Position numbers and translations under genes: made by a program. From an uncultured delta proteobacterium (GTDB taxonomy: Bacteria; Desulfobacterota; Syntrophobacteria; BM002), in NCBI GenBank assembly GCA_963712115.1, contig CAVQGX010000034.1, forward strand, positions 1 through 25,882: a stretch of DNA of 25,882 nt, written 5' to 3'. This document shows, piece after piece, positions 1 to 19,128 of the stretch; within the stretch, counting starts at the first letter, position 1; every line of letters begins with the position of its first letter. The notes beneath the pieces were generated by a model. It had not been told where the DNA came from, searched no databases, and saw only the letters and a list, made by a program, of their open reading frames with translations.

Positions 1-35
1 CACACTCTGCTGGAATTTAATCTGGCACAAAATGT
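1..35. repeat. Module-boundary direct repeat, copy A (left part cut off by the window edge)
   Basis: CACACTCTGCTGGAATTTAATCTGGCACAAAATGT aligns without gaps to 3663-3697 and 6971-7005. Confidence 0.85.
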
Positions 36-63
36 CGAAGGCTGTCAAGGCAATGTCCACAAC

Positions 64-102
64 AAAGAAAAGAGGCTGAACGCACATGGCATCCAGCCTC
101 TT
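64..102 (-). terminator. Rho-independent terminator after the lipoprotein gene
   Basis: Stem AAGAGGCTG (70-78) / CAGCCTCTT (94-102); the A-rich run at 64-70 gives a U tail on the minus strand. Confidence 0.65.
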
Positions 103-151
103 ATCAAGCCAAATTATTTCGTTATTGAGATTTCCGCTCAATCCGATACGT

Positions 152-697
152 CTAAAATTCTTTGTCTTTTACATGTTCTTCATAAAAACGACGAAAACAT
201 CCAAAATTACTCGCTGAAAGAGAATACTCACGTTTTTTTACTTTGCACTTTACTTCTTCAGCATAAGTTATCTCCTTGAGTTGCTCAGGAGTAATATCGT
301 AAGCTGCCATATCCATGCCCCACAAACGAGAAAGTACGCTTTGAAGTTCTATCCTGCCTGAGCTTGTCAATCGCATATCTTTGTCATCAGCTGTCATGAC
401 CAAGGTTTCGGCAGGCTTTACAAAAAGCCAGTCTAGTCCTTTGTAGATAATCACTAGTTGGAGCTTGTACTTTTCTTCCTTCCTGTGAAGCCATATGTTT
501 AAATCCAGACTAGTTCCTAACTCATTATTTTCAGTTTTTATGGCGGTAAAGTTACCATTTTCATCTACTTCAGCTCTAATTGCACAAGCTGTAGGAGTAG
601 CTGATTCTGGTGGGTATGTTTTCCTGGAGCATCCAAATTGAAAGGTCATTAACAAAGGAAAAATAAGAAAAATCGGAAATACATTGCTTCTCATCAT
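152..697 (-). CDS. Hypothetical lipoprotein, 181 aa
   Basis: AAGGAG RBS; hydrophobic N-terminus ending in a lipobox-like QFGC. No family recognised. Confidence 0.75.
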   Translation of the reverse strand: MMRSNVFPIFLIFPLLMTFQFGCSRKTYPPESATPTACAIRAEVDENGNFTAIKTENNELGTSLDLNIWLHRKEEKYKLQLVIIYKGLDWLFVKPAETLVMTADDKDMRLTSSGRIELQSVLSRLWGMDMAAYDITPEQLKEITYAEEVKCKVKKREYSLSASNFGCFRRFYEEHVKDKEF

Positions 698-1005
698 TAA
701 ACTCCTTTGTACTTGGTCGGAGTGCCAACCTCACAAAAGGCGTTCTCATCATCTACACATCATATTGAGTGCCAACCTTACCATCGGGGCGTGGATAATA
801 CCTTTTCTTAATTTAAACCAAGATATGGTGGCGGGGTTTCAGTGGGGAAAGTGTGGATTAAAGTATGAGATATTCAGTTTCCAAAGAAATAGACAGAGCC
901 GGTTCTGACTCTGCCTTTCAGCTTGGGCTTGAACTTAACCTATTCAATTTCAATGAGTTAAGAGGCTCAGCAACGGGTCGGTGTAAACCCAGATTAAATT
1001 ATGGC

Positions 1006-1965
1006 TTAGTGTGGTGGAGATCCTACGCTTCGTTTGAAAGAAATAACTAGTCGATCATCTCCCAAAATGATCTGATAAGAAGGCTCCTTTTCGGATACCA
1101 AGTCAAATACCACTCGTAACTTCTCACTATGTAGACCCACCCGTATCTTTTTGACTAGCAATCCTTTCAGGCTCTGGACACCTTTCACCTTAGTAGACCG
1201 AACCGCCATGAAATCCATCACCAATCTCGGTGGGCTATTCAAGAAGAAAGTATCATATTGAGCAAGACTTCCATCAGCGAGGATGTAGATACGCAATTCT
1301 TCATCTGATTTAATTGATTTGATGGCCGTTATTTCATGCGCAGGCATCACTGGCTCCCTTTTAGTGGGTTGTACAGAAGAAAGTATCCCTTCTTCTAAAG
1401 TGGGGGCAGCCGTAGCGGCTTCAAGTCTACCGCCGAAGTCTTCAGCCTTCGATTTTGTAACGGGTTCTATCTGGAGAGGCTTAGCTCCTGTCTGAAGAGA
1501 TGATGTGTCGAAACTCACCCAGATCTTCCCCTGCGCTCTGCTAATTACGTATGTGACATCCCTGTTTAAATCTATCCCGATTTGCGTTAGAGGCTGAGGA
1601 CCACTGATAAGCACTGAAGCTCTAATTCTGCCAACGATCTCGTTTTCTTTATGTCGTGGCAGGACCTCGGGGCTGATAACTGTATTCGGCAAATCTACTT
1701 TTAGTCCTAGAGGATTAACCGTTTTACTTGCCTCATAGGTCATGGATTCAGAACCGGTGAGTACAACGTGCCATCGGTCATCCTGATTGATGACCTCGAT
1801 GGTTCTAAGTATGTTGGGATCAGTAGTAGTTTCATCCTCAGTTCCGCCTGAGGAAAGGGTTGGAGAGGTATTGGGAGTAGCGTGGTCCATAGCGTATAGC
1901 ATACATATTAAGAGTATCAAGAAAATTACGCAGCCTTGAGCTAAATGATACCGGACATGCGCCAT
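1006..1965 (-). CDS. Exported protein with two AMIN-like domains (as in the PilQ/AmiC N-terminus)
   Basis: GGAGG RBS; N-terminal hydrophobic segment; two AMIN-type segments (NPLGLKVDLPNT; YDTFFLNSPPRLVMDF...KIRVGLHSEKLRVVFDL). Confidence 0.75.
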   Translation of the reverse strand: MAHVRYHLAQGCVIFLILLICMLYAMDHATPNTSPTLSSGGTEDETTTDPNILRTIEVINQDDRWHVVLTGSESMTYEASKTVNPLGLKVDLPNTVISPEVLPRHKENEIVGRIRASVLISGPQPLTQIGIDLNRDVTYVISRAQGKIWVSFDTSSLQTGAKPLQIEPVTKSKAEDFGGRLEAATAAPTLEEGILSSVQPTKREPVMPAHEITAIKSIKSDEELRIYILADGSLAQYDTFFLNSPPRLVMDFMAVRSTKVKGVQSLKGLLVKKIRVGLHSEKLRVVFDLVSEKEPSYQIILGDDRLVISFKRSVGSPPH

Positions 1966-2209
1966 TTAGTAACCATACCTCCAAAAAACTATTACCCCAC
2001 CTGACAACAGCAAGCTTTCTTTTTTAGCCATATCCTGTGATTTATTAGAAATGAAATAAGGCTTGGCAAACAGGCACAGGAGGTCTGAGAGTGTCAAGTC
2101 TATATTTTATAGAGCCATTCCAGAGCCGATCTAACATGTTATCAGATTAACACGCACAAATCGATAACGTATATTGTAATGTTTCAGACAGGTCAAGAGA
2201 AAAAAGGTG

Positions 2210-3522
2210 TTAGTTTGGTACGGCAGTCAATTGTTGTTGGATTCGTCCTTGGTTGACCTGTCTCCTTCGTTCTTTGGCAATTTGAACCATCTGCCTGTAG
2301 TGATTGAGAAGCTGGCTCTTGTTTCCGAGACGGTGGACATCGCCAGGGGTATAGTTCCACAGGGCCTGATGGGGCCGTTGTTCGTTGTAGTAGTCAATGT
2401 AGTGGGCCAGGCACAGGCGAGCGATCTCTTCTGAAAGATACGTGGGATAGCAGTAGATCTCTTCTTGTTTCACTGTCCGGTACCAGCGTTCCTGTCGGGC
2501 ATTATCCGTAGGACGATACGCTCTTGCTGGGGAGAGCAGCATCTCCAGGTCTTTGATCAGCCGCCTGGTCTTGATCGCCGTATTGGGTGAACCCTGATCT
2601 ACCCGGACAATGGGTTTGGGATGTTGATGCTCGATTCTCTCACTCATGTAGGCAAGTGCCAGGAGTGCTTGAACCTCTCGTTGGGTGACGGTCTTCACCA
2701 CGGCCCAGGCTACGATGTAACGGGAAAAATAGTCGATAATAGTGAGCAGGTAATGCCTCAATCCGGTAATCGACAGAATGGTCCAATCCTCTCCCCAGAT
2801 CTGGTTCGGGCGAAACGGTTCATATCGAGCTACTTTCCAGGGAGCCGTCCGCAGACAGGCAGCCATGACCCAGCCGAGAGCTTTGAGCCGACGGTAGCAA
2901 CTCGAAGGGCTGATCCAATGACCGTCCTGTCGCAACAAACCACTGACTTGGCGATGGCTGAGCTGAGGCTCTCCTTTCTTCTTCTTGATGATGGCGTGCT
3001 GTTCCTCAGCAGTCAGACGGAGCACGGCGGCCGACTTCTTTCGGACTGTAGGAGGGTTCAGCCAAACATAGTATGTGGAACGACAGACCCCAAGGCCCCT
3101 GAGCGTCTCTGATATGGAAAATCCTTGAGCACGGAGCCTTTGGACTTCCTCGAGGATCCGATGCCGCTGCTCCTGGCTGTAGGTGGCTCCCGTGGGACGG
3201 TTCGTTAGAGCAAGTTCATCTCTTTTTTTAAAAGCATCAGCTCTTGGGTCTGCAGAGCCAGGGCTTCCTTCAGTCTCTGGTTCTCTTTCTCCAGCTTCTT
3301 GATGCGGGGATCCAATCTGGGCTTCTTCCCACTCAGAAACGCTTGCGCACCCTGCTCCAGAGCTTTCCTCCATCGGTAGAGGGTCTGAGGATGGATCTGA
3401 TACTTCTCCGCTACCTCGACACCGTTTCCAGATCGCTCCCATTCCCTGAGAATCTGGAGCTTCTGCTGAGGGGTAAACCTTTTGGCCTTTCGCCGAGTTG
3501 GGATGACTAGTTGTACGCTCAT
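2210..3522 (-). CDS. IS3-family OrfAB DDE transposase made by -1 frameshift at A7 (3223-3229)
   Basis: Slipping -1 at TTA AAA AAA G joins OrfA to KRDELALTNRP...; rve core with WGEDWT, IIDYFSR, RVDQG, DNARQERWYRTVKQE, YYNEQRPHQAL. The 3568 start in the ORF track is probably not the real start. Confidence 0.8.
3205..3522 (-). CDS. IS3-family OrfA (HTH plus coiled coil)
   Basis: AGGAGGAG RBS; RFTPQQKLQIL...VAEKYQIHPQTLYRWRK HTH; leucine-zipper-like IKKLEKENQRLKEAL. Confidence 0.85.
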   Translation of the reverse strand: MSVQLVIPTRRKAKRFTPQQKLQILREWERSGNGVEVAEKYQIHPQTLYRWRKALEQGAQAFLSGKKPRLDPRIKKLEKENQRLKEALALQTQELMLLKKEMNLL

Positions 3523-3646
3523 GCATCTTCCTCCTCCTGGTGACTATAGCACTCTCTTGAGCGTCCAACTAACACCTTTTAGGGGCTGAAACTGTCTAGA
3601 TCGGATTGAAACATTATATATAGACTTATCTTGATCACTACAAAAC

Positions 3647-3697
3647 ATTACATCCCTTAATTCACACTCGGCTAAAATTTACTCTGGCACAAGATGT
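3647..3697. repeat. Module-boundary direct repeat, copy B (intact)
   Basis: ATTACATCCCTTAATTCACACTCGGCTAAAATTTACTCTGGCACAAGATGT; its first 23 nt equal the rejoined flanks of the IS1111 element. Confidence 0.9.
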
Positions 3698-3706
3698 TGA
3701 GAGTAT

Positions 3707-3730
3707 AAAAAAGCGGAGCCGAAGCTCCGC
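3707..3730 (-). terminator. Rho-independent terminator
   Basis: GCGGAGC-CGAA-GCTCCGC (UUCG loop on the minus strand), with A6 at 3707-3712 giving the U tail. Confidence 0.8.
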
Positions 3731-3743
3731 ATGGTTTTTGAGT

Positions 3744-4022
3744 TTATGTGGTAGGACTCGCTGTGACATCAATGTAGTATATCTGATGCCCACTTCTGTC
3801 GGAATCTGGCCTCACAAGGATAACGTTCCGTGAAACAATGGACGCAGCGGTAGTGGCAATCACCATAGTCGGGTTTTCAACGGGTAGGCTAAGATACGTT
3901 TCATAATGAATGTGCTCGTGAGAAGGCTTATAACGACACTTTTCATGCGGAAAGGGACACTCAAGAATAAAAGCGGTCACCGCACCAATGACTACTATAC
4001 ACTGTTTACATTTTGGGTGCAT
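3744..4022 (-). CDS. Hypothetical protein, 92 aa
   Basis: Strong AAGGAGAGG RBS and a terminator directly downstream; Cys/His-rich N-terminal half; no family recognised. Confidence 0.5.
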   Translation of the reverse strand: MHPKCKQCIVVIGAVTAFILECPFPHEKCRYKPSHEHIHYETYLSLPVENPTMVIATTAASIVSRNVILVRPDSDRSGHQIYYIDVTASPTT

Positions 4023-4129
4023 TTAAAACCTCTCCTTTACATTCTGATTATAACAGGGCTAGGAATGCCGTAGTGTTCTTTGAAAAATGAAATACCTCGT
4101 CCTTAGTGGGAGTAGATACAATCTTAAAG

Positions 4130-4821
4130 CTAGGGTTTTTGGGTTTTTGTTATTTCTTGCTTAATTGCGCTTGCTAAATCTTCACCAACTATAATTGGGT
4201 CCCTACTAGGTTTTTTCTTATGCCAGGTGACAGCTATAATAACTTGTCCTGTGGTTACATCGACAATCCTTGCTGTCGCCCCGATATTTCCGTGTATTGT
4301 TCGCCCGATGCAAATTTCCCCAACATGAGAAACTTGCTTCTTTCCTTCGCTTCGACATTTCCTACTAAAAGATAATCTACACTGGCTATCTTGCCTATCT
4401 TACGATAATCAACATTCTCTGTTATACCAGTTTGACTAAGCCCATGTTCTTCGAGAATACTCGCAAGGTATGAGCGCTCAATGACTTTACACCCCGAGTC
4501 AATGAGGTTAGCTCCCACTGTATCACTAACAAGAAATCCCACACTGGGAATATCAGAGTAAAATGGTAAAACACCCAACACCTTGCCTGCAATATTACAG
4601 CTTGGAGTGGAATAAGATTTAGGGATTGGAGGAGTAGGAGAAGCACAGGCTGTTATCAATCTTTCATTTTGGTATCCTAAATACAATCCGTTTCCATCGT
4701 AAACTGCCGATGGTGTAAGAGAAGCTTTTTTGCCTTCTCCCGGCGTAGGCTCGGCATATGCAAAAAAGCCAACACCCATAACCAAAGCTAGGATGACAGT
4801 ACAGACACCTATCTTTCTCAT
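4130..4821 (-). pseudogene. CsgG/TolB-N-fold-like exported protein, frameshifted at a G4 run (4279-4282)
   Basis: KVIERSYLASILEEHGLSQTG...KIGKIASVDYLLVGNV is CsgG-like. Adding one G restores ATARIVDVTTGQVIIAV...KTQKP*, ending at 4130. Could be an assembly error. Confidence 0.65.
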
Positions 4822-4971
4822 TTTCGGCTGTTCCTATCGTTTCTGAGGCTCAAGGAAAATGACAGCAGCTTCTGCAGACCAGCACAGAAAGGAAAGATTG
4901 TATCTCGTGGATGAGTGATAGTGGGAAATTGAACTATTGTTAGATTACTATGGGGTGGCTGTGGACGCAAT

Positions 4972-5033
4972 AAAAAAGCCCCCACTGACCTGAGTTGCCC
5001 CTTGCTAAGGTCTGCGCGGGTGGCCTGTGGGGG
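4972..5033 (-). promoter_or_regulatory. GC-rich structured leader or terminator upstream of the CsgG-like gene
   Basis: Minus strand CCCCCAC...GACCT...AGGTC-A-GTGGGGG followed by C and T6, set in AT-rich DNA. Confidence 0.4.
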
Positions 5034-5331
5034 AAGCGGTACCGGAAATAATGAACTAAAAGAGAGATACATGAATATGCGGTTACTTTGCACCAAAGAA
5101 AAAATATAGTCAAACAATTTTTTTGTAATATCGTATATTTATCAACATGGTGCAAGGTTGTTAATTTGTAGATAACTCTTCTAATATCCTCATATTCGTG
5201 CCAAACTCTTTTAACAATTTACTTACATTGCAGAGCAAAAAAAATAGCCGTGGACAACCAGGGAGAAAGTGAAATAGGCTGCATGGATAAGGTGGAGAGA
5301 AATGAGAAATCTCGGACTGCTATAAATGCAG

Positions 5332-5342
5332 ATTACATCCCT
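5332..5342. repeat. Module-boundary repeat copy C, left part (up to the CT core)
   Basis: ATTACATCCCT is identical to 3647-3657. Confidence 0.85.
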
Positions 5343-5364
5343 TCTATGATGGCCTTGTTGTCAA

Positions 5365-5731
5365 GCCCTCTTTTGGGGTGAGAGGTTTTTGCCTTGCTTT
5401 TCACTATATTTTCGAAGCATCCGAACCGAGGATGACCCGCAGCTGGATCCGGCACCGCGCCCATGCGCCTTATGGTCTTTGGTTGTCTGGTTCCGTGGGA
5501 CGTGGGAGTGCGTGGCTCCTGTCTACCACCTTCTATCCGTGCCGCAGGTTGTAAGCGGACACCTAATACTGCATGCGCTCAGCGCCCAGTGGAACCCAGA
5601 GGAAAGATGCCCCATCTTAATTACGGTGTGTGTCTCTCACCCAGGGAAGTAACGGGCATCTTTACAACCAAAACCGCTCAGAGCTTTACGAGATCCCGAT
5701 GTGGTTTACTGCCAGAGCGCCCACATCCTGT
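5365..5731 (-). ncRNA. Putative bridge RNA / seekRNA region of the IS1111 element (exact ends unknown)
   Basis: A 10-bp stem (5603-5612/5654-5663) encloses an internal loop matching both halves of the insertion target; a second long stem (5486-5600) contains CTTCTAT, matching the element's own end. Confidence 0.75.
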
Positions 5732-6883
5732 CTAAACGATCGCCTTGAGACACGCCCCTTCAGGGATGAGTCCATGTGTTCGAAAACGCCACAGTGCAAT
5801 GAGCAGTTTGCGGGCCAGAGCCACAATGCCAATACGCCGCATGCGCTTGCCTCCATGGGCAAAGCGTTCATTGAACCACCGACTCAGCTCGCTTCTGGGC
5901 TGGTAGCGTAACCAGGACCAGGAAATTTCAACAATGAGTGTGCGGATCCGCTTGTTTCCCGCCTTACTAATTCCCTGTTCCCTGTGACTCTCACCACTGG
6001 TATAGGGCGTTGGCGTCAGACCCGCACAGGCACCCACCTCCCGACGATTGCCAAAGGTGCGCCAGCCAAAAAACTCTTTTTCAAATACCCAGCCACTGGT
6101 TATGCCAATCCCACACAGGCTCATCAATTGCGCCACTCGCCTGTCAGAGTCCGTATCCCCCCGGCGAATCCGCTCTCGTTGCTCCTTCTCCAGAGTCCTT
6201 ATCTGCTCTTCCACATGGCGCAGTCGTTCATGCTCCCGGATGAGTCGAGCTCTCAGTTCACCGGGTACCATCGTGCCATCCCACAGGCGTATCGTCTCTA
6301 TATAGGTCACAAAGTCTTTCCTGCTCGCATTGCTAAGCTCGATCCCGTGTAACTTCAAAAGCGAACGCATCCGGTTGCGGTGCATCGTGCGCTCATCTCT
6401 CAACGTCTCCAACTCCCGGTGCAAATGCCTGGCATCCTCCTCATCAACACTTGGCACCCGCACCACACTCCACAGCCGTCTCTCTCCAGCACAAAACCGT
6501 ATCAGCATCCGCACCAGGCTGCCGGCATCCAACCGATCCGTCTTCGCTCGCCTCTTGCGCCGGCTCACTTCAATACTGGAAGAATCCACCACCACGTTGG
6601 CGATCCCACAACTGTGCAAATAGCGGTGCAACCAAAACCCGTACCTGCCTGCTTCATAACAACTGACCACCGGCGTGTTAGTCGGCAGTCCAAAACGCCT
6701 CCTCGCTCTGGCAATGGCATCATGTAGCTCCAGCATAGCCCCGGAACCAATCACCTGGTTCTTGACTCTACCGCCGTCACTGAAAGCCAGCTTCCACTTC
6801 CTCTCAGAGAGCTCCAAGGCAATGTACAAAAACTTTTCAACTGTGCTATTCTCCCTCTTGAGGGTCGCTTGGATCTGGTTCAT
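5732..6883 (-). CDS. IS110-family (DEDD RuvC-like plus Tnp domain) recombinase/transposase
   Basis: IALELS, CYEAG, AKTDRLDA; C-terminal CGIG, AGLTPTPYTSG (catalytic Ser position), ISKAGNKRIR, VALARKL; GGAGG RBS. Confidence 0.95.
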   Translation of the reverse strand: MNQIQATLKRENSTVEKFLYIALELSERKWKLAFSDGGRVKNQVIGSGAMLELHDAIARARRRFGLPTNTPVVSCYEAGRYGFWLHRYLHSCGIANVVVDSSSIEVSRRKRRAKTDRLDAGSLVRMLIRFCAGERRLWSVVRVPSVDEEDARHLHRELETLRDERTMHRNRMRSLLKLHGIELSNASRKDFVTYIETIRLWDGTMVPGELRARLIREHERLRHVEEQIRTLEKEQRERIRRGDTDSDRRVAQLMSLCGIGITSGWVFEKEFFGWRTFGNRREVGACAGLTPTPYTSGESHREQGISKAGNKRIRTLIVEISWSWLRYQPRSELSRWFNERFAHGGKRMRRIGIVALARKLLIALWRFRTHGLIPEGACLKAIV

Positions 6884-6965
6884 TGTAACCTCCTTGGTCC
6901 TTTGGGTTTGACAAGTACCTCTTTATACCACCAAAGGACTATCCAAGCGGCCCTTCATAGCATCT

Positions 6966-7005
6966 TAATTCACACTCTGCTGGATTTCAAACTGGCACAA
7001 TATTT
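6966..7005. repeat. Module-boundary repeat copy C, right part
   Basis: TAATTCACACTCTGCTGGATTTCAAACTGGCACAATATTT aligns to copies A and B. Confidence 0.85.
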
Positions 7006-7349
7006 AGTTTCCTGTCAACGACTGCTTCGACTCCGCTTCACTGCGCCTACAGCCCTTTGCCCAGCAAGCCCAACAAGCACAGCAAAAGGTCAAAAAAAAT
7101 GGTGTGCGCATTTGGCAGGCGCGTCCGGCACCTGCACGAAAAGCGCTGGAGGGACTACCCGGCCTCCGAATTCGGGCGCTGGTGCGATTGCGTTCGTTCG
7201 AGCTGGCGGGCATGGTGGCTGCGGCGAGGATCGGCTGGACCGAAGTGGCGCTCTTAAGCCTTCGCATCGCGGGGGTATCGGTAGTAGGCATTGGTCGAGG
7301 CAAGATCGTCGATTCTGGGGGCGATTTGGGCGTCGGATTGTTCCGATTT

Positions 7350-7427
7350 GTTGGGTATAGAGTTGGGAGTAGATAAAATTCAAAAGAAAAAGGACTTAGA
7401 TTATTAGTCTAAGTCCTTAATTTTAAA
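7350..7427. other. Probable island attachment (att) end next to tRNA-Val
   Basis: Tandem 11-mers GTTGGGTATAG / GTTGGGAGTAG (arm-type-like) and IHF-like TAAGTCCTTAATT directly beside the tRNA CCA end. Confidence 0.45.
7382..7418 (-). terminator. Terminator hairpin after tRNA-Val
   Basis: AAGGACTTAGA / TCTAAGTCCTT stem with an A-run at 7382-7391. Confidence 0.75.
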
Positions 7428-7503
7428 TGGTGGGCGGGACAGGAGTTGAACCTGCGACCCCCGGCTTGTAAGGCCGATGCTCTCCCCACTGAGCTACCCG
7501 CCC
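7428..7503 (-). tRNA. tRNA-Val(TAC)
   Basis: GGGCGGGTAGCTCAGTGGGGAGAGCATCGGCCTTACAAGCCGGGGGTCGCAGGTTCAACTCCTGTCCCGCCCACCA; 76-nt cloverleaf, anticodon TAC, encoded CCA. Confidence 0.97.
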
Positions 7504-16827: not shown

Positions 16828-16869
16828 CCTCTGACCAGTCAGAATTCACTAGACAGTAGCCAGCAGATA

Positions 16870-17004
16870 GCAGGTAGAACTCAGAGGTCAGAGATCAGAT
16901 GTCGGAGGTCAGGGGTAAAGCTGATCTCTGATCTCCGACTTCTGACCTCTGTGATGGACGACTTGAACGGTATCAACGATTTGAACCGTTTGAACCATTT
17001 GACG
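16870..17004. repeat. Long inverted repeat, left copy
   Basis: 16870-16960 is the reverse complement of 18980-19070 with one mismatch; continues through 9-mer TTGAACNNN units. Confidence 0.9.
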
Positions 17005-17083
17005 ACATGCCCACTGCTCCTTGCCTACGGGATTCTGGCTTCTGACCACTTTTTGACCAACATCAGATCAGAGATAAGCTCGC

Positions 17084-18673
17084 ATGGAACTAGGCATTGA
17101 AGCGCAAGCATTGTGGTTGCTGATAATTGCTGCAGCCGTCGCAATGTTCACTAAATACATTCGGCTGCCATATACTATTGCCTTGGTAGTTGTAGGACTA
17201 GCCATGGGGGCACTCGATCTTCTGCCCCATATGCTTCTCACCCCGGAATTGGTCTTCCATATTTTCTTGCCCATCCTCCTCTTTGAAGCAGCATTCAATA
17301 TAGACATACTTGACCTGCAGAAAACTGCTCGATCCATTGCGGTGTTAGCCTTGCCAGGTGTGCTGCTGGCCGCCACCGTCACTGCTATTGTTACCTATTT
17401 CGGATTTAAGTTGTGGAAAGGGGGTACCGACTTATCTTGGGGCCATGCTCTACTTTTTGGCACCATCGTAGCTGCAACAGATCCTATTTCGGTGCTGGCT
17501 CTTTTCAGAGAGTTTGGGGTCACCCGAAGGCTTAGCTTAATTATAGAAGGCGAGAGCCTTTTTAACGACGGCGTGGCGGTAGTGCTTTTTGGGGTTATTC
17601 TGGCGATGGTTCAAGGGGACGATTTTAACGCCCTAACTGCTATAGGGCAATTTGTAGTAAGCGTGGTTGGTGGAGGGGGCATTGGAGTCCTGCTCGGCCT
17701 GGCCATGGCCAAAATAATGAGCTTGGTGGATGACCATCTCATCGAGATTACCTTGACCACAATTCTTGCTTTCAGTGCTTATTTGCTTGCCGAGCATCTG
17801 CATGTCTCAGGGGTTATTGCGGTTATTGGGGCAGGTATAATGACCGGTAACTACTCGACAAAACTGGCCATGTCACCCACTACCCGAATATCAGTTTCAG
17901 ACTTCTGGGAATATGCTGCCTTTGTAGTTAATTCTGTGCTTTTTGTCATGGTTGGTATCGAGGTGAAAATAGTCGACTTTGCACCACTGTGGGTTGCAGC
18001 ATTGTTGGCAGTAGCTGCCATGACCTGTGGACGGGCAGCCGCGGTGTTTGTCACAGCACCTATTATCGGCAGGGTGGATAAAGTTTTACCTGCAAGTTGG
18101 CAAGGTGTGCTCTTTTGGGGGGGCATTCGAGGAGCCATCTGCATGGTCCTCGCTCTTAGCCTACCCAGGGATCTGGCTCTCCGTCAGCTCTTGATAACCA
18201 TGATTTTCGCAGTGGTGATATTTACCCTGCTGGTTCAGGGCTTGAGCATGAAGGCTTTGCTTAAGAAGCTGGGTCTAATTCCAATCAAAACGCAGGAGAC
18301 GTACGAGGCAAGGAAGGGTGAAATATACGCCCTAGGGCGAGTCCGGTTGGAGCTGGAGCAGATGCATAACCGTGGCGCCCTGTCACAACGAAACTATGAA
18401 ATTTTGGCACCGCGCTTGCAGGATCGTTTAAAGGATTTAAAGGTAGATTTGCATGAGGTTGCCGCCATAGAGCGGGAGGCCGTGGCTGAGGAATTGGACC
18501 GTGCAGAAGAAAGGCTCCTCCACGCAGAAAAAGACGGAATCAGGGAGGCCTACCTCTCTGGAATCATCTCAGAAGGGGTTATGAAAAAACTCTTGAGCAG
18601 TGTTGATGATAGACTCTTTGCCCTGGAGACAGCCGCGGAAAAGCATCCCACTTCCAATGGAAAAGAAAATTAG
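17084..18673 (+). CDS. CPA1-family (NhaP-type) Na+(K+)/H+ antiporter
   Basis: FLPILLFEAA, AATDPISV, IEGESLFNDG, SGVIAV, WGGIRGA, LVQG motifs; many TM segments. Confidence 0.92.
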   Translation: MELGIEAQALWLLIIAAAVAMFTKYIRLPYTIALVVVGLAMGALDLLPHMLLTPELVFHIFLPILLFEAAFNIDILDLQKTARSIAVLALPGVLLAATVTAIVTYFGFKLWKGGTDLSWGHALLFGTIVAATDPISVLALFREFGVTRRLSLIIEGESLFNDGVAVVLFGVILAMVQGDDFNALTAIGQFVVSVVGGGGIGVLLGLAMAKIMSLVDDHLIEITLTTILAFSAYLLAEHLHVSGVIAVIGAGIMTGNYSTKLAMSPTTRISVSDFWEYAAFVVNSVLFVMVGIEVKIVDFAPLWVAALLAVAAMTCGRAAAVFVTAPIIGRVDKVLPASWQGVLFWGGIRGAICMVLALSLPRDLALRQLLITMIFAVVIFTLLVQGLSMKALLKKLGLIPIKTQETYEARKGEIYALGRVRLELEQMHNRGALSQRNYEILAPRLQDRLKDLKVDLHEVAAIEREAVAEELDRAEERLLHAEKDGIREAYLSGIISEGVMKKLLSSVDDRLFALETAAEKHPTSNGKEN

Positions 18674-18730
18674 TGATGAAAACTGATATGTCGCCCTACC
18701 ACCCTCCAACCGCTTCCCCAGGAGCCCGGT

Positions 18731-18904
18731 ATGAAGAAAAATGAGAAATTGCTGGAGGCCTGGAATCAGTTAGTCAAAGCGATTAGCCAGAAAGAGGGCT
18801 TGAGCGGAGATCAGGCAGTACAGCATGTGAGGAAGCATTTTCCTGAGCTCTACGACCTTTACAGGCAGGCTCAAAAGGAGAAGCAGACGAAGGGGTCGAA
18901 GTAA
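18731..18904 (+). CDS. Small hypothetical protein, 57 aa (not in ORF track)
   Basis: GGAG RBS at 18721; MKKNEKLLEAWNQLVKAISQKEGLSGDQAVQHVRKHFPELYDLYRQAQKEKQTKGSK* reads like a helical protein. Confidence 0.6.
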   Translation: MKKNEKLLEAWNQLVKAISQKEGLSGDQAVQHVRKHFPELYDLYRQAQKEKQTKGSK

Positions 18905-18927
18905 CTCGCATAGCGCATAAAGCACAG

Positions 18928-19070
18928 CGTCAAATGGTTCAAAGCGTTCAAATCGTTTAAGTTGTTAAACCGTTTAAGCCGTCCATCACAGAGGTCAGAA
19001 GTCGGAGATCAGAGATCAGCTTTACCGCTGACCTCCGACATCTGATCTCTGACCTCTGAGTTCTACCTGC
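18928..19070. repeat. Long inverted repeat, right copy
   Basis: Reverse complement of 16870-17004, with about one extra 9-mer unit. Confidence 0.9.
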
Positions 19071-19128
19071 TGCCCGCTGCCTGCTGCCTGCTGAAATGGG
19101 GGGCTCGACTCTACCTGACTAATGCAGT

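Follow-up and report, generated by a model that had tools for sequence, protein, structure and literature searches.

A two-form repeat as a candidate site of gene-module shuffling in chromosomal islands of a Syntrophobacteria genus

The stretch of DNA analysed here (the window) is the whole of contig CAVQGX010000034.1 (C34), 25,882 nucleotides long, from assembly GCA_963712115.1 of an uncultured delta proteobacterium of the Syntrophobacteria. The genome, referred to as G000, is a metagenome bin of 4.9 Mb in 70 contigs (94% complete, 6% contamination). Next to a tRNA-Val gene, the window carries three copies of a repeat of about 50 bp, termed T1, which separate small AT-rich gene modules. T1 and a second, inverted form, T2, bound modules in arrays across G000, and the endpoints of duplicated sequence are strongly enriched at their cores. 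On balance, the sequence data tip slightly towards site-specific shuffling of modules at T1 and T2, in a manner resembling the pdif modules of Acinetobacter plasmids; both the involvement of a site-specific recombinase in these exchanges and its identity are what we infer. Comparisons were made with 17 other genomes of the same genus (18 with G000), all of them incomplete metagenome-assembled genomes (MAGs), and with an outgroup of 23 genomes from 17 other genera.

Anatomy of the repeat

Aligned T1 copies share a core that forms an imperfect palindrome, composed of a variable weak arm, a 7-bp centre, and a nearly invariant strong arm. The weak left arm takes several forms (...AAGTGTGG, ACTTTGT, or AGTTTAG, followed by ATTA; consensus rAAGTGTGGATTA) and does not covary with the strong arm. 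The centre, CATCCCT, is invariant and asymmetric, and the right arm (TAATTCACACT) hardly varies. About 33 nt of accessory sequence (CnGCTGGAATTTAATCTGGCACAAGATGTTGAGA) follow the strong arm, often succeeded by a shared two-way terminator; T1 has a terminator on one side and, on the other, the leader of the following gene, and the leaders adjoining the sites are conserved. T2 (AAAAGTGTGGATTA-AAGTATG-TAATyCACA) is the T1 unit inverted, with a centre, CATACTT, that differs at two of seven positions. The two forms often constitute inverted pairs, 76-130 nt apart, around a terminator. From this layout, the repeat is marginally best described as the putative strong half of a lox- or dif-like recombination core plus accessory sequence.

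An earlier, sequence-only reading of the window had reported three copies of about 50 bp, and all three hold at the places it gave, with zero expected by chance. Repeat finding returned a single family at 1-48, 3663-3710, and 6971-7018, and a scan with a 30-nt IUPAC consensus (at most one mismatch) matched exactly the same three copies, while none of 100 dinucleotide shuffles contained any match. With the upstream box (ATTACATCCCTTAATT) included, the copies extend over 1-38, 3647-3701, and 5332-5342 plus 6966-7007.

Two lineages of IS110-family insertion sequences (ISs) insert inside the site. The lineage found in the window enters after the centre (CT core); the second, of about 1.32 kb and with four copies that are 90-98% identical, is inserted after TTCACAC, with TCAC on both sides. 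Copies of the family within sites lie at window 5343-6965, C41:2039-3360, and C42:16950-18345, as well as on contigs C48 and C36, and seven DEDD transposase paralogues are located in arrays.

Arrays in the genome and in the genus

An iterated nhmmer profile search recovered 112 T1 copies in G000, most of them clustered in the same orientation (16 on C3:106-128 kb, 10 on C36, 8 on C42, 6 on C13, and more on other contigs). A census with 12-mers allowing one mismatch gave 111 T1 and 62 T2, compared with 17 and 20 for the reversed-motif controls. The further same-orientation copies for which the sequence-only reading had called thus exist in number, in arrays across the genome. Orientation depends on type. 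Among neighbours less than 8 kb apart, T1-T1 pairs share an orientation in all 39 cases (0 inverted) and T2-T2 pairs in 11, with 1 inverted, whereas T1-T2 pairs are inverted in 64 of 68 cases (4 same). In seven other genomes T1 and T2 are likewise inverted at all 15 co-occurrences among the matches listed (for T1, 150 of 257). The earlier idea of tandem module accumulation therefore stands insofar as the arrays consist of site-bounded modules; it fails as simple tandem accretion, given that two inverted heterospecific types alternate.

The 66 intervals between same-orientation T1 neighbours measure 130-6594 bp (median 1547 bp), and 73,773 of their 95,540 coding nucleotides (77%) are on the strand opposite T1, which means that genes run toward the terminator and then the site; the integron-like trait of co-oriented cassettes with the site at the 3′ end is hence present. 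In total the arrays span 185,917 nt, with a GC content of 45.4% versus 49.05% elsewhere in G000. The large contigs C20 and C30 have no sites, and clustering in about 186 kb, as opposed to dispersal between core genes, is a provisional result because of the fragmented assembly. Several contigs begin or end within a T1 copy; since sites break short-read assemblies in this way, accessory genomes are under-sampled.

An exact T1 18-mer and an exact T2 19-mer each occur in the same 16 of the 17 other genomes of the genus and in none of the 23 outgroup genomes, and backward-read controls gave no match. The genome lacking both words, G001, is 80% complete. A scan of one genome per species (596 Gb) yielded at least 92 T1 stretches, and most of the matches listed come from MAGs labelled Syntrophobacteria, Syntrophobacterales, Desulfobacteraceae, or Deltaproteobacteria; single matches in unrelated phyla correspond to about the number expected by chance for an 18-mer in 596 Gb (estimate ~17). 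A T1-T2 unit had no match in plasmid and phage collections searched in distant mode. No description of the site, or of such arrays in Desulfobacterota, was found in a literature search that left supplements outside. Two genomes presented as single contigs, G002 and G013, are N-joined scaffolds as fetched, with sites near gaps, and the scatter of sites in them is for this reason uninformative.

Module mosaics and breakpoints

Duplication endpoints were collected from intragenomic alignments of at least 300 bp and at least 90% identity on all site-bearing contigs. Thirty-five of 207 endpoints are no more than 30 nt away from a core centre, a zone that holds 0.31% of the bases, which corresponds to an enrichment of about 55-fold; most of the other endpoints are IS copies or long duplicated stretches. 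When 3-kb stretches centred on every T1 are compared, near-identical pairs coincide on one side only. Pairs sharing the right side begin at −9 to 0, and pairs sharing the left side diverge at +19 to +24 or farther within the conserved accessory part; one pair, C41/C42, shares an IS and not a module. A single right-hand module is found behind four different left flanks (C3, C4, C28, and C31), the copies being identical from ACATCCC onward and position +2 varying with the left flank, so that the exchange falls within roughly +3 to +15, spanning the centre. At T2, nine pairs centred on the site have their breaks at −8 to +33. The window is itself a mosaic: 3-868 matches C36:12971-13836 at 98% identity, 848-2174 matches C3:110345-111651 at 97%, and the C36-like and C3-like segments are joined at the T2 centre. 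Variable module content with breakpoints inside the site, which the sequence-only reading had named as a check, is accordingly found for the cores of both T1 and T2, where the junctions are seen as sequence mosaics rather than as recombination events.

Four metagenome runs from estuary and sediment were consulted in the form of contigs, the best of which contained 0.24 of the sampled words; most joints in these contigs have sides shorter than 30 nt and hence reflect repeats. Contig depth over window 3557-3810 is 22-181 compared with about 5 alongside, and 24 contigs match from 3646/3647 rightward while carrying other sequence to the left. One joint runs backward (5328->1); its left half-site is different, which marks it as a paralogous neighbour and not as a circle.

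Proposed exchange and candidate enzymes

In the proposed mechanism, modules would be gained, lost, or swapped when sites of like type exchange strands within the 7-bp centre. T1xT1 or T2xT2 recombination between direct repeats would cut out or add modules in groups, and with one T1 pair and one T2 pair used together, two DNA molecules would trade a single module. A scheme of this kind has been put forward for the pdif modules of Acinetobacter. Paired heterospecific sites in inverted orientation are a laboratory design for cassette exchange. A wider version, which we regard as possible at somewhat below even, is a genus-wide chromosomal cassette exchange in which the two heterospecific inverted sites may swap modules without loss, through redirected XerC/XerD or an unrecognised recombinase; if true, it would constitute a third general architecture of gene capture beside integrons and plasmid dif modules.

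A dedicated recombinase consistently linked to the site, anticipated by the sequence-only reading, was not found. That reading had noted that no recombinase lies in the window, and indeed the contig has no tyrosine or serine recombinase gene. The internal arrays on C31 and C9 neither contain nor adjoin a recombinase gene, and Pfam scans of 37 array, flank, and window proteins detected IS transposases alone and no site-specific recombinase. Serine recombinases occur in one of the 18 genus genomes, and G000 has none. Each of the 18 genus genomes has one XerD-like and one XerC-like gene, and no other tyrosine recombinase was found throughout the set; six site-bearing genomes (G002, G003, G006, G007, G013, and G016) have just two tyrosine recombinases each. 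The G000 proteins pass the NCBIfam cut-offs for XerD (TIGR02225, 375 bits versus 330) and XerC (TIGR02224, 347 bits versus 335); the XerD gene is at C62:23741-24634 and the XerC gene at C30:207931-208920. The strong arm of T1 matches the XerD arm of the G000 dif at 7 of 11 positions. Because they are present throughout the genus, form the sole pair in six genomes, and the strong arm is dif-like to this extent, host XerC/XerD are favoured as the candidate enzyme, tentatively, at odds well below even, and as the least secure step of the argument. The assertion that the arrays use a recombinase different from that of pdif modules is accordingly unproven, and the analogy with pdif may be literal, given that XerC/XerD alone are found in all 18 genomes.

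Three other candidates for a dedicated enzyme were rejected. The integrases near arrays are sporadic. One beside tRNA-Pro (C39) occurs in 2 of 18 genus genomes. A small Xer-like recombinase (C3:1094-1930) is shared by 6 of 17 genus genomes and by a genus that lacks the sites; in G000 as well as in G006, its distance from sites is about 2.5-3.6 kb. Y1 transposases have ends unrelated to the site: four Y1_Tnp genes are flanked by hairpins of their own, and none by T1 or T2.

In agreement with the sequence-only reading, the repeat is not the chromosomal dif, since the dif-like 28-mer of G000 is single-copy (C43:75937-75964); its conservation extends to 15 of 17 genus genomes and 5 genomes from outside the genus. 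Another dif-like site, in which both arms are identical to dif and the spacer is changed, was observed at G002:C1:280948-280975 and G016:C48:5156-5183, and may mark an Xer-integrated element.

Counter-evidence and alternative explanations

Several observations weigh against site-specific shuffling at T1 and T2 or against XerC/XerD as its agents. The 22-nt identical core is a likely spot for homologous exchange, so that breakpoints within it do not prove a site-specific enzyme. One boundary, that of window 3647 compared with C3:110319, seems to lie near +45, outside the core. A 3.2-kb accessory block (C27:117085-120306), absent from G012 and G007, holds a T2 and a T1, and its outer ends, when compared with these two genomes, have no cores; not every module block is bounded by sites. 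Many long contig stretches are 93-99% identical (e.g., C3:18-31 kb with C29, and C2 with C4), which in combination with the 6% contamination suggests that two related strains are present in the bin. Some of the "duplicates" may be such co-binned strains and would then represent variable order and not events within one cell; such pairs would be differences between strains instead of paralogues, which is what the sequence-only reading had suggested as a check. Single-module circles, proposed as a check in the sequence-only reading, were not seen in the contigs of the four metagenome runs. As for the enzyme, the weak arm matches the XerC arm of the G000 dif at 4 of 11 positions, the centre measures 7 bp and not 6, and XerC/XerD are also present in G001, where no exact site match was found. 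Moreover, the genomes being incomplete MAGs, an island-borne recombinase may have gone unassembled or unrecognised.

The main rival, which we consider unlikely and nonetheless the most serious, is an intergenic palindrome of the repetitive extragenic palindromic (REP)/bacterial interspersed mosaic element (BIME) kind or a miniature inverted-repeat transposable element (MITE), with mosaics arising from homologous recombination and co-binned strains. REP elements are extragenic, numerous, and genus-specific, and serve as targets of IS110-family elements. T1 and T2 display all of these features, with copies in the hundreds, and the palindromic core, the T1-T2 inverted pairs around terminators, the C27 block lacking cores at its outer ends, and the contamination of the bin all fit this explanation. 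What it leaves unaccounted for is the tie between centre type and orientation (64 of 68 T1-T2 pairs inverted, 39 of 39 T1-T1 pairs direct), which random insertion would not be expected to produce, as well as the enrichment of endpoints at the cores and the confinement of sites to lower-GC islands. Nor does any REP-associated transposase carry the units, the four Y1_Tnp genes having their unrelated hairpins. For a MITE, neither a target duplication in the flanks that were read nor a parent element was found, in an inspection that was not a systematic test.

Site-specific shuffling of modules could also proceed through folded single strands, in which case the T1-T2 hairpin with its unpaired centre would be the substrate, as in attC sites; this we hold to be improbable. 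There is precedent in the attachment site of the cholera-toxin phage, which folds and is used by XerCD. A short T1-T2 unit is able to form a 12-bp stem, a 3x3 internal loop, and a 15-bp stem at −26.4 kcal/mol (z = −7.2, none of 200 shuffles as good), and a 149-nt unit reaches z = −4.2. A third unit, however, is unexceptional (z = −1.5, 13 of 200 shuffles as good), the hairpin of the accessory segment is weak (mean −3.85 versus −2.45 kcal/mol for shuffles), and the weak arm lacks covariation with the strong arm. Many T1 copies, including all three in the window, have no nearby T2 partner with which to fold.

That the repeat is the operator or promoter of a regulon, i.e., a palindromic transcription-factor site upstream of accessory genes, is very improbable. 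The 10-7-10 palindromic layout of the core, its position, flanked by a terminator and by the leader of the gene that follows, and the conservation of site-adjacent leaders would suit an operator. They would not explain, however, why partners change exactly at the core, why an inverted second type lies downstream of genes, or why ISs target the site and the sites are restricted to variable islands; inspection by eye, as distinct from a promoter scan, revealed no convincing -35/-10 pair. Other functional motifs considered by eye were rejected. A sigma-54 promoter (TGGCAC...) fails in the spacing to its -12 element and lies on the wrong strand; a small peptide or GGA-rich RNA upstream of T1 does not keep its frame and is confined to one flank class; and a hammerhead-like motif in the other flank class has no stem II. 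No Rfam family was matched at gathering thresholds in the window and six array loci, or at E values up to 1 in window 1-7450. The repeat is also not a duplicated tRNA end, in agreement with the sequence-only reading.

G000 does contain an integron, with an IntI gene at C27:2350-3303 (487 bits versus a cut-off of 265) and an adjacent array of at least four attC sites (CCTAAC...GGTTAGG) between small minus-strand ORFs up to the contig start, the whole integron covering C27:1-3303. Despite this integrase and the cassette-like polarity of the modules, the idea that the repeat is an unusual attC of this integron, as in integrase-less clusters, can be dismissed almost entirely: the repeat and its flanks have no AAC/GTT (RYYYAAC...GTTRRRY) boxes, as had been observed before, the IntI on C27 has canonical attC sites of its own that are unrelated to the repeat, C27 is free of T1 and T2 for 100 kb from the IntI gene, and IntI-like hits (~130 bits, 322-331 aa, not individually checked) occur in 4 of 18 genomes, whereas the sites occur in 17 of 18.

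Organization of the window

The contig end cuts the first T1 copy (~1-39, plus strand), which begins at site position +16 and thus retains the end of the strong arm and the 33-nt accessory segment. A terminator-like hairpin followed by a T-run, read from the sequence (71-103, minus), lies downstream of a minus-strand cargo gene for 181 aa (152-697), which has a lipoprotein-like N-terminus and no Pfam family. A T2 site follows at 808-877 (plus), with its flank at 808-850, one arm at 851-860, the centre AAGTATG at 861-867, and a degenerate arm at 868-877. Beyond it lie a cargo gene for 319 aa (1006-1965, minus) with a C-terminal AMIN domain (Pfam), and an IS3-family element with orfA and orfB (2175-3618, minus), flanked by a TAT target duplication, whose ends were set by comparing three copies in the genome, this one and two identical ones elsewhere; this element is missing from some metagenome contigs. 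The second T1 copy (3638-3701, plus) comprises a weak arm (3638-3650), the centre CATCCCT (3651-3657), the strong arm TAATTCACACT (3658-3668), and accessory sequence (3669-3701). Next to it is a two-way terminator hairpin (GCGGAGCC...GCTCCGC, 3708-3742) that is conserved beside many T1 copies.

The following module contains a cargo ORF for 92 aa without Pfam family (3744-4022, minus), a gene for 188 aa (4255-4821, minus) whose N-terminus is signal peptide-like and which has a CsgG-like match that is weak, and a conserved leader segment (4970-5273, minus) that includes a terminator-like hairpin at about 4975-5035. On the minus strand this GC-rich hairpin with its T-run stands in the 5′ leader of the 188-aa gene and looks like an attenuator or a riboswitch; it had no Rfam match. 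The third T1 copy is split into a left part (5323-5342, plus; weak arm and centre, ending ...CATCCCT) and a right part (6966-7007, plus; strong arm and accessory segment) by an IS110-family element (5343-6965, minus; Pfam DEDD_Tnp_IS110 and Transposase_20). The insertion point is exactly where the CATCCCT centre meets the strong arm (TAATTCAC...), the element being bordered by CT at either end, and the IS-free joint 5328->6964 is present in metagenome contigs. The tRNA-Val(TAC) gene (7428-7503, minus) faces the array with its 3′ end.

Without the ISs, the copies are about 2.2 kb and 1.7 kb apart, as the sequence-only reading had calculated, and its picture of AT-rich minus-strand genes with terminators beside tRNA-Val is confirmed: the GC contents of the two intervals are 42.2% and 41.4%, compared with 48% in the remaining window. 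The first interval had been taken for a single module, and this has to be corrected, for the inverted T2 at 851-877 was overlooked and divides it into two. Farther along the window, 127-nt inverted repeats that are 91% complementary enclose about 2 kb (16845-19095); they are made of 7-nt units (CAGAGGT/CAGAGAT...) and may belong to a transposon or an invertible segment.

Accessory islands and their cargo

In five related species (G012, G008, G016, G014, and G005), the flank of tRNA-Val equals the sequence at C42:31013-20853 in G000, with the end of a small conserved gene 100-260 bp away from the tRNA gene. The array beside tRNA-Val in G000 consequently represents an insertion, missing from these five species, and extends over at least 27 kb (C42:20850 down to 1, a gap, and C34:1-7427). 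One T1 lies about 95 nt from tRNA-Val in G002, and two lie within 4.5 kb of it in G017; synteny beside tRNA-Val in G002 was set aside, as the join crosses a run of N. None of the genes at window 3700-5330, including that for 188 aa, has a DNA match in the 17 other genomes of the genus. From this second module, only the leader 4970-5273 recurs, twice in G010 and once in G008, at 75-77% identity.

Modules range from 0.1 to 6.6 kb, and most carry one to a few accessory genes that are read toward the terminator and the site. The arrays are rich in signalling genes (PilZ, receiver, and FHA) and in envelope genes. The largest group of cargo is a paralogue cluster with 13 members, of which both members scanned have PilZ; this domain is also found in a separate cluster of three and in an FHA-cNMP-PilZ protein. 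Single receiver domains, FHA proteins, and a cyclase-TPR protein add to the signalling cargo. Envelope and other cargo comprises SH3, PKD, and HtrA proteins, an MreB paralogue, DUF4136, a caspase-TPR protein, a sulfatase, an aminotransferase, and several ISs. PilZ is a receptor domain for cyclic di-GMP (c-di-GMP). As a separate observation, a c-di-GMP-I riboswitch (C42:19147-19237, 76.9 bits) adjoins tRNA-Cys at the inner edge of the tRNA-Val island.

Two further features were observed in passing. On C11 of G012 (L100:15041-18193), 3.3 kb separate tRNA-Val from lon, with an inverted 46-nt copy of the 3′ part of the tRNA at the far end. An unrelated dispersed repeat of about 144 nt (G002 L099:11563-11706) occurs at about 80 places in G000, core regions included, at 75-86% identity.

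Comparison with known systems

If site-specific shuffling at T1 and T2 is correct, modular capture by short core sites extends beyond integrons and Acinetobacter plasmids, and several per cent of the chromosome have been shaped in this way in uncultured anaerobic sediment bacteria. The system would also make it possible to test clearly if Xer recombinases can be retargeted to sites that are far removed from dif.

The closest known system is that of the XerC/XerD-dependent pdif/dif modules of Acinetobacter plasmids (PMC13141974, PMC12907356, PMC10132070). There, inversely oriented sites alternate, exchange requires identical or nearly identical spacers, and pairs of modules can be excised between direct sites, while single modules are thought to move by formation of a cointegrate and its resolution at a second pair of sites (PMC13141974); specialised ISs target the sites (PMC10132070). 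T1 and T2 are similar in being short and bipartite, with one conserved and one weaker arm and an asymmetric spacer, in alternating in opposite orientations along the array, in exchange that is apparently limited to sites with the same spacer, and in bounding modules of one to few accessory genes, with ISs targeting the sites and no recombinase gene in the array. Unlike pdif sites, they are chromosomal, with about 170 sites over 186 kb in one genome, and each orientation is rigidly tied to one of two centre sequences. The pdif definition of two dif-like 11-bp Xer arms around a 6-bp spacer does not apply to them, their centre having 7 bp and their arms resembling the dif of the same genome weakly (7 of 11 and 4 of 11 positions). 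In addition, the core is flanked by an accessory segment of 33 nt and by conserved leaders, the host belongs to the Desulfobacterota, and dependence on Xer is putative here. Cassette exchange at natural 29-bp sites could explain how single pdif modules move, a question still open in the pdif literature (PMC13141974).

Sedentary chromosomal integrons and integrase-less attC clusters are comparable in their large chromosomal arrays of small, co-oriented, lower-GC cassettes with a species-specific end repeat, in variable content, and in targeting by IS110/IS1111-type elements. In contrast to these, T1 and T2 have neither attC boxes nor a link to IntI, include a second, inverted site type, and possess a core that looks double-stranded rather than an obligatory hairpin. 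REP/BIME systems with a REP-associated tyrosine transposase (RAYT) consist of genus-specific, extragenic palindromic units in alternating orientation, near terminators and hit by IS110-family elements. T1 and T2 agree with them in each of these respects and differ in that no RAYT is flanked by the units and that copies are confined to variable islands, where they mark module boundaries. Tycheposons reportedly have tRNA-derived attachment sites and carry their own integrases. T1 and T2, by comparison, represent a non-tRNA site that is the same at every locus; what the tycheposon islands of Prochlorococcus have in common with G000 are islands of variable cargo modules beside tRNA genes (10.1101/2020.12.28.424599). 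Because the sequence definitions of both attC and pdif fail, T1/T2 is best filed as a variant that is a member of neither family.

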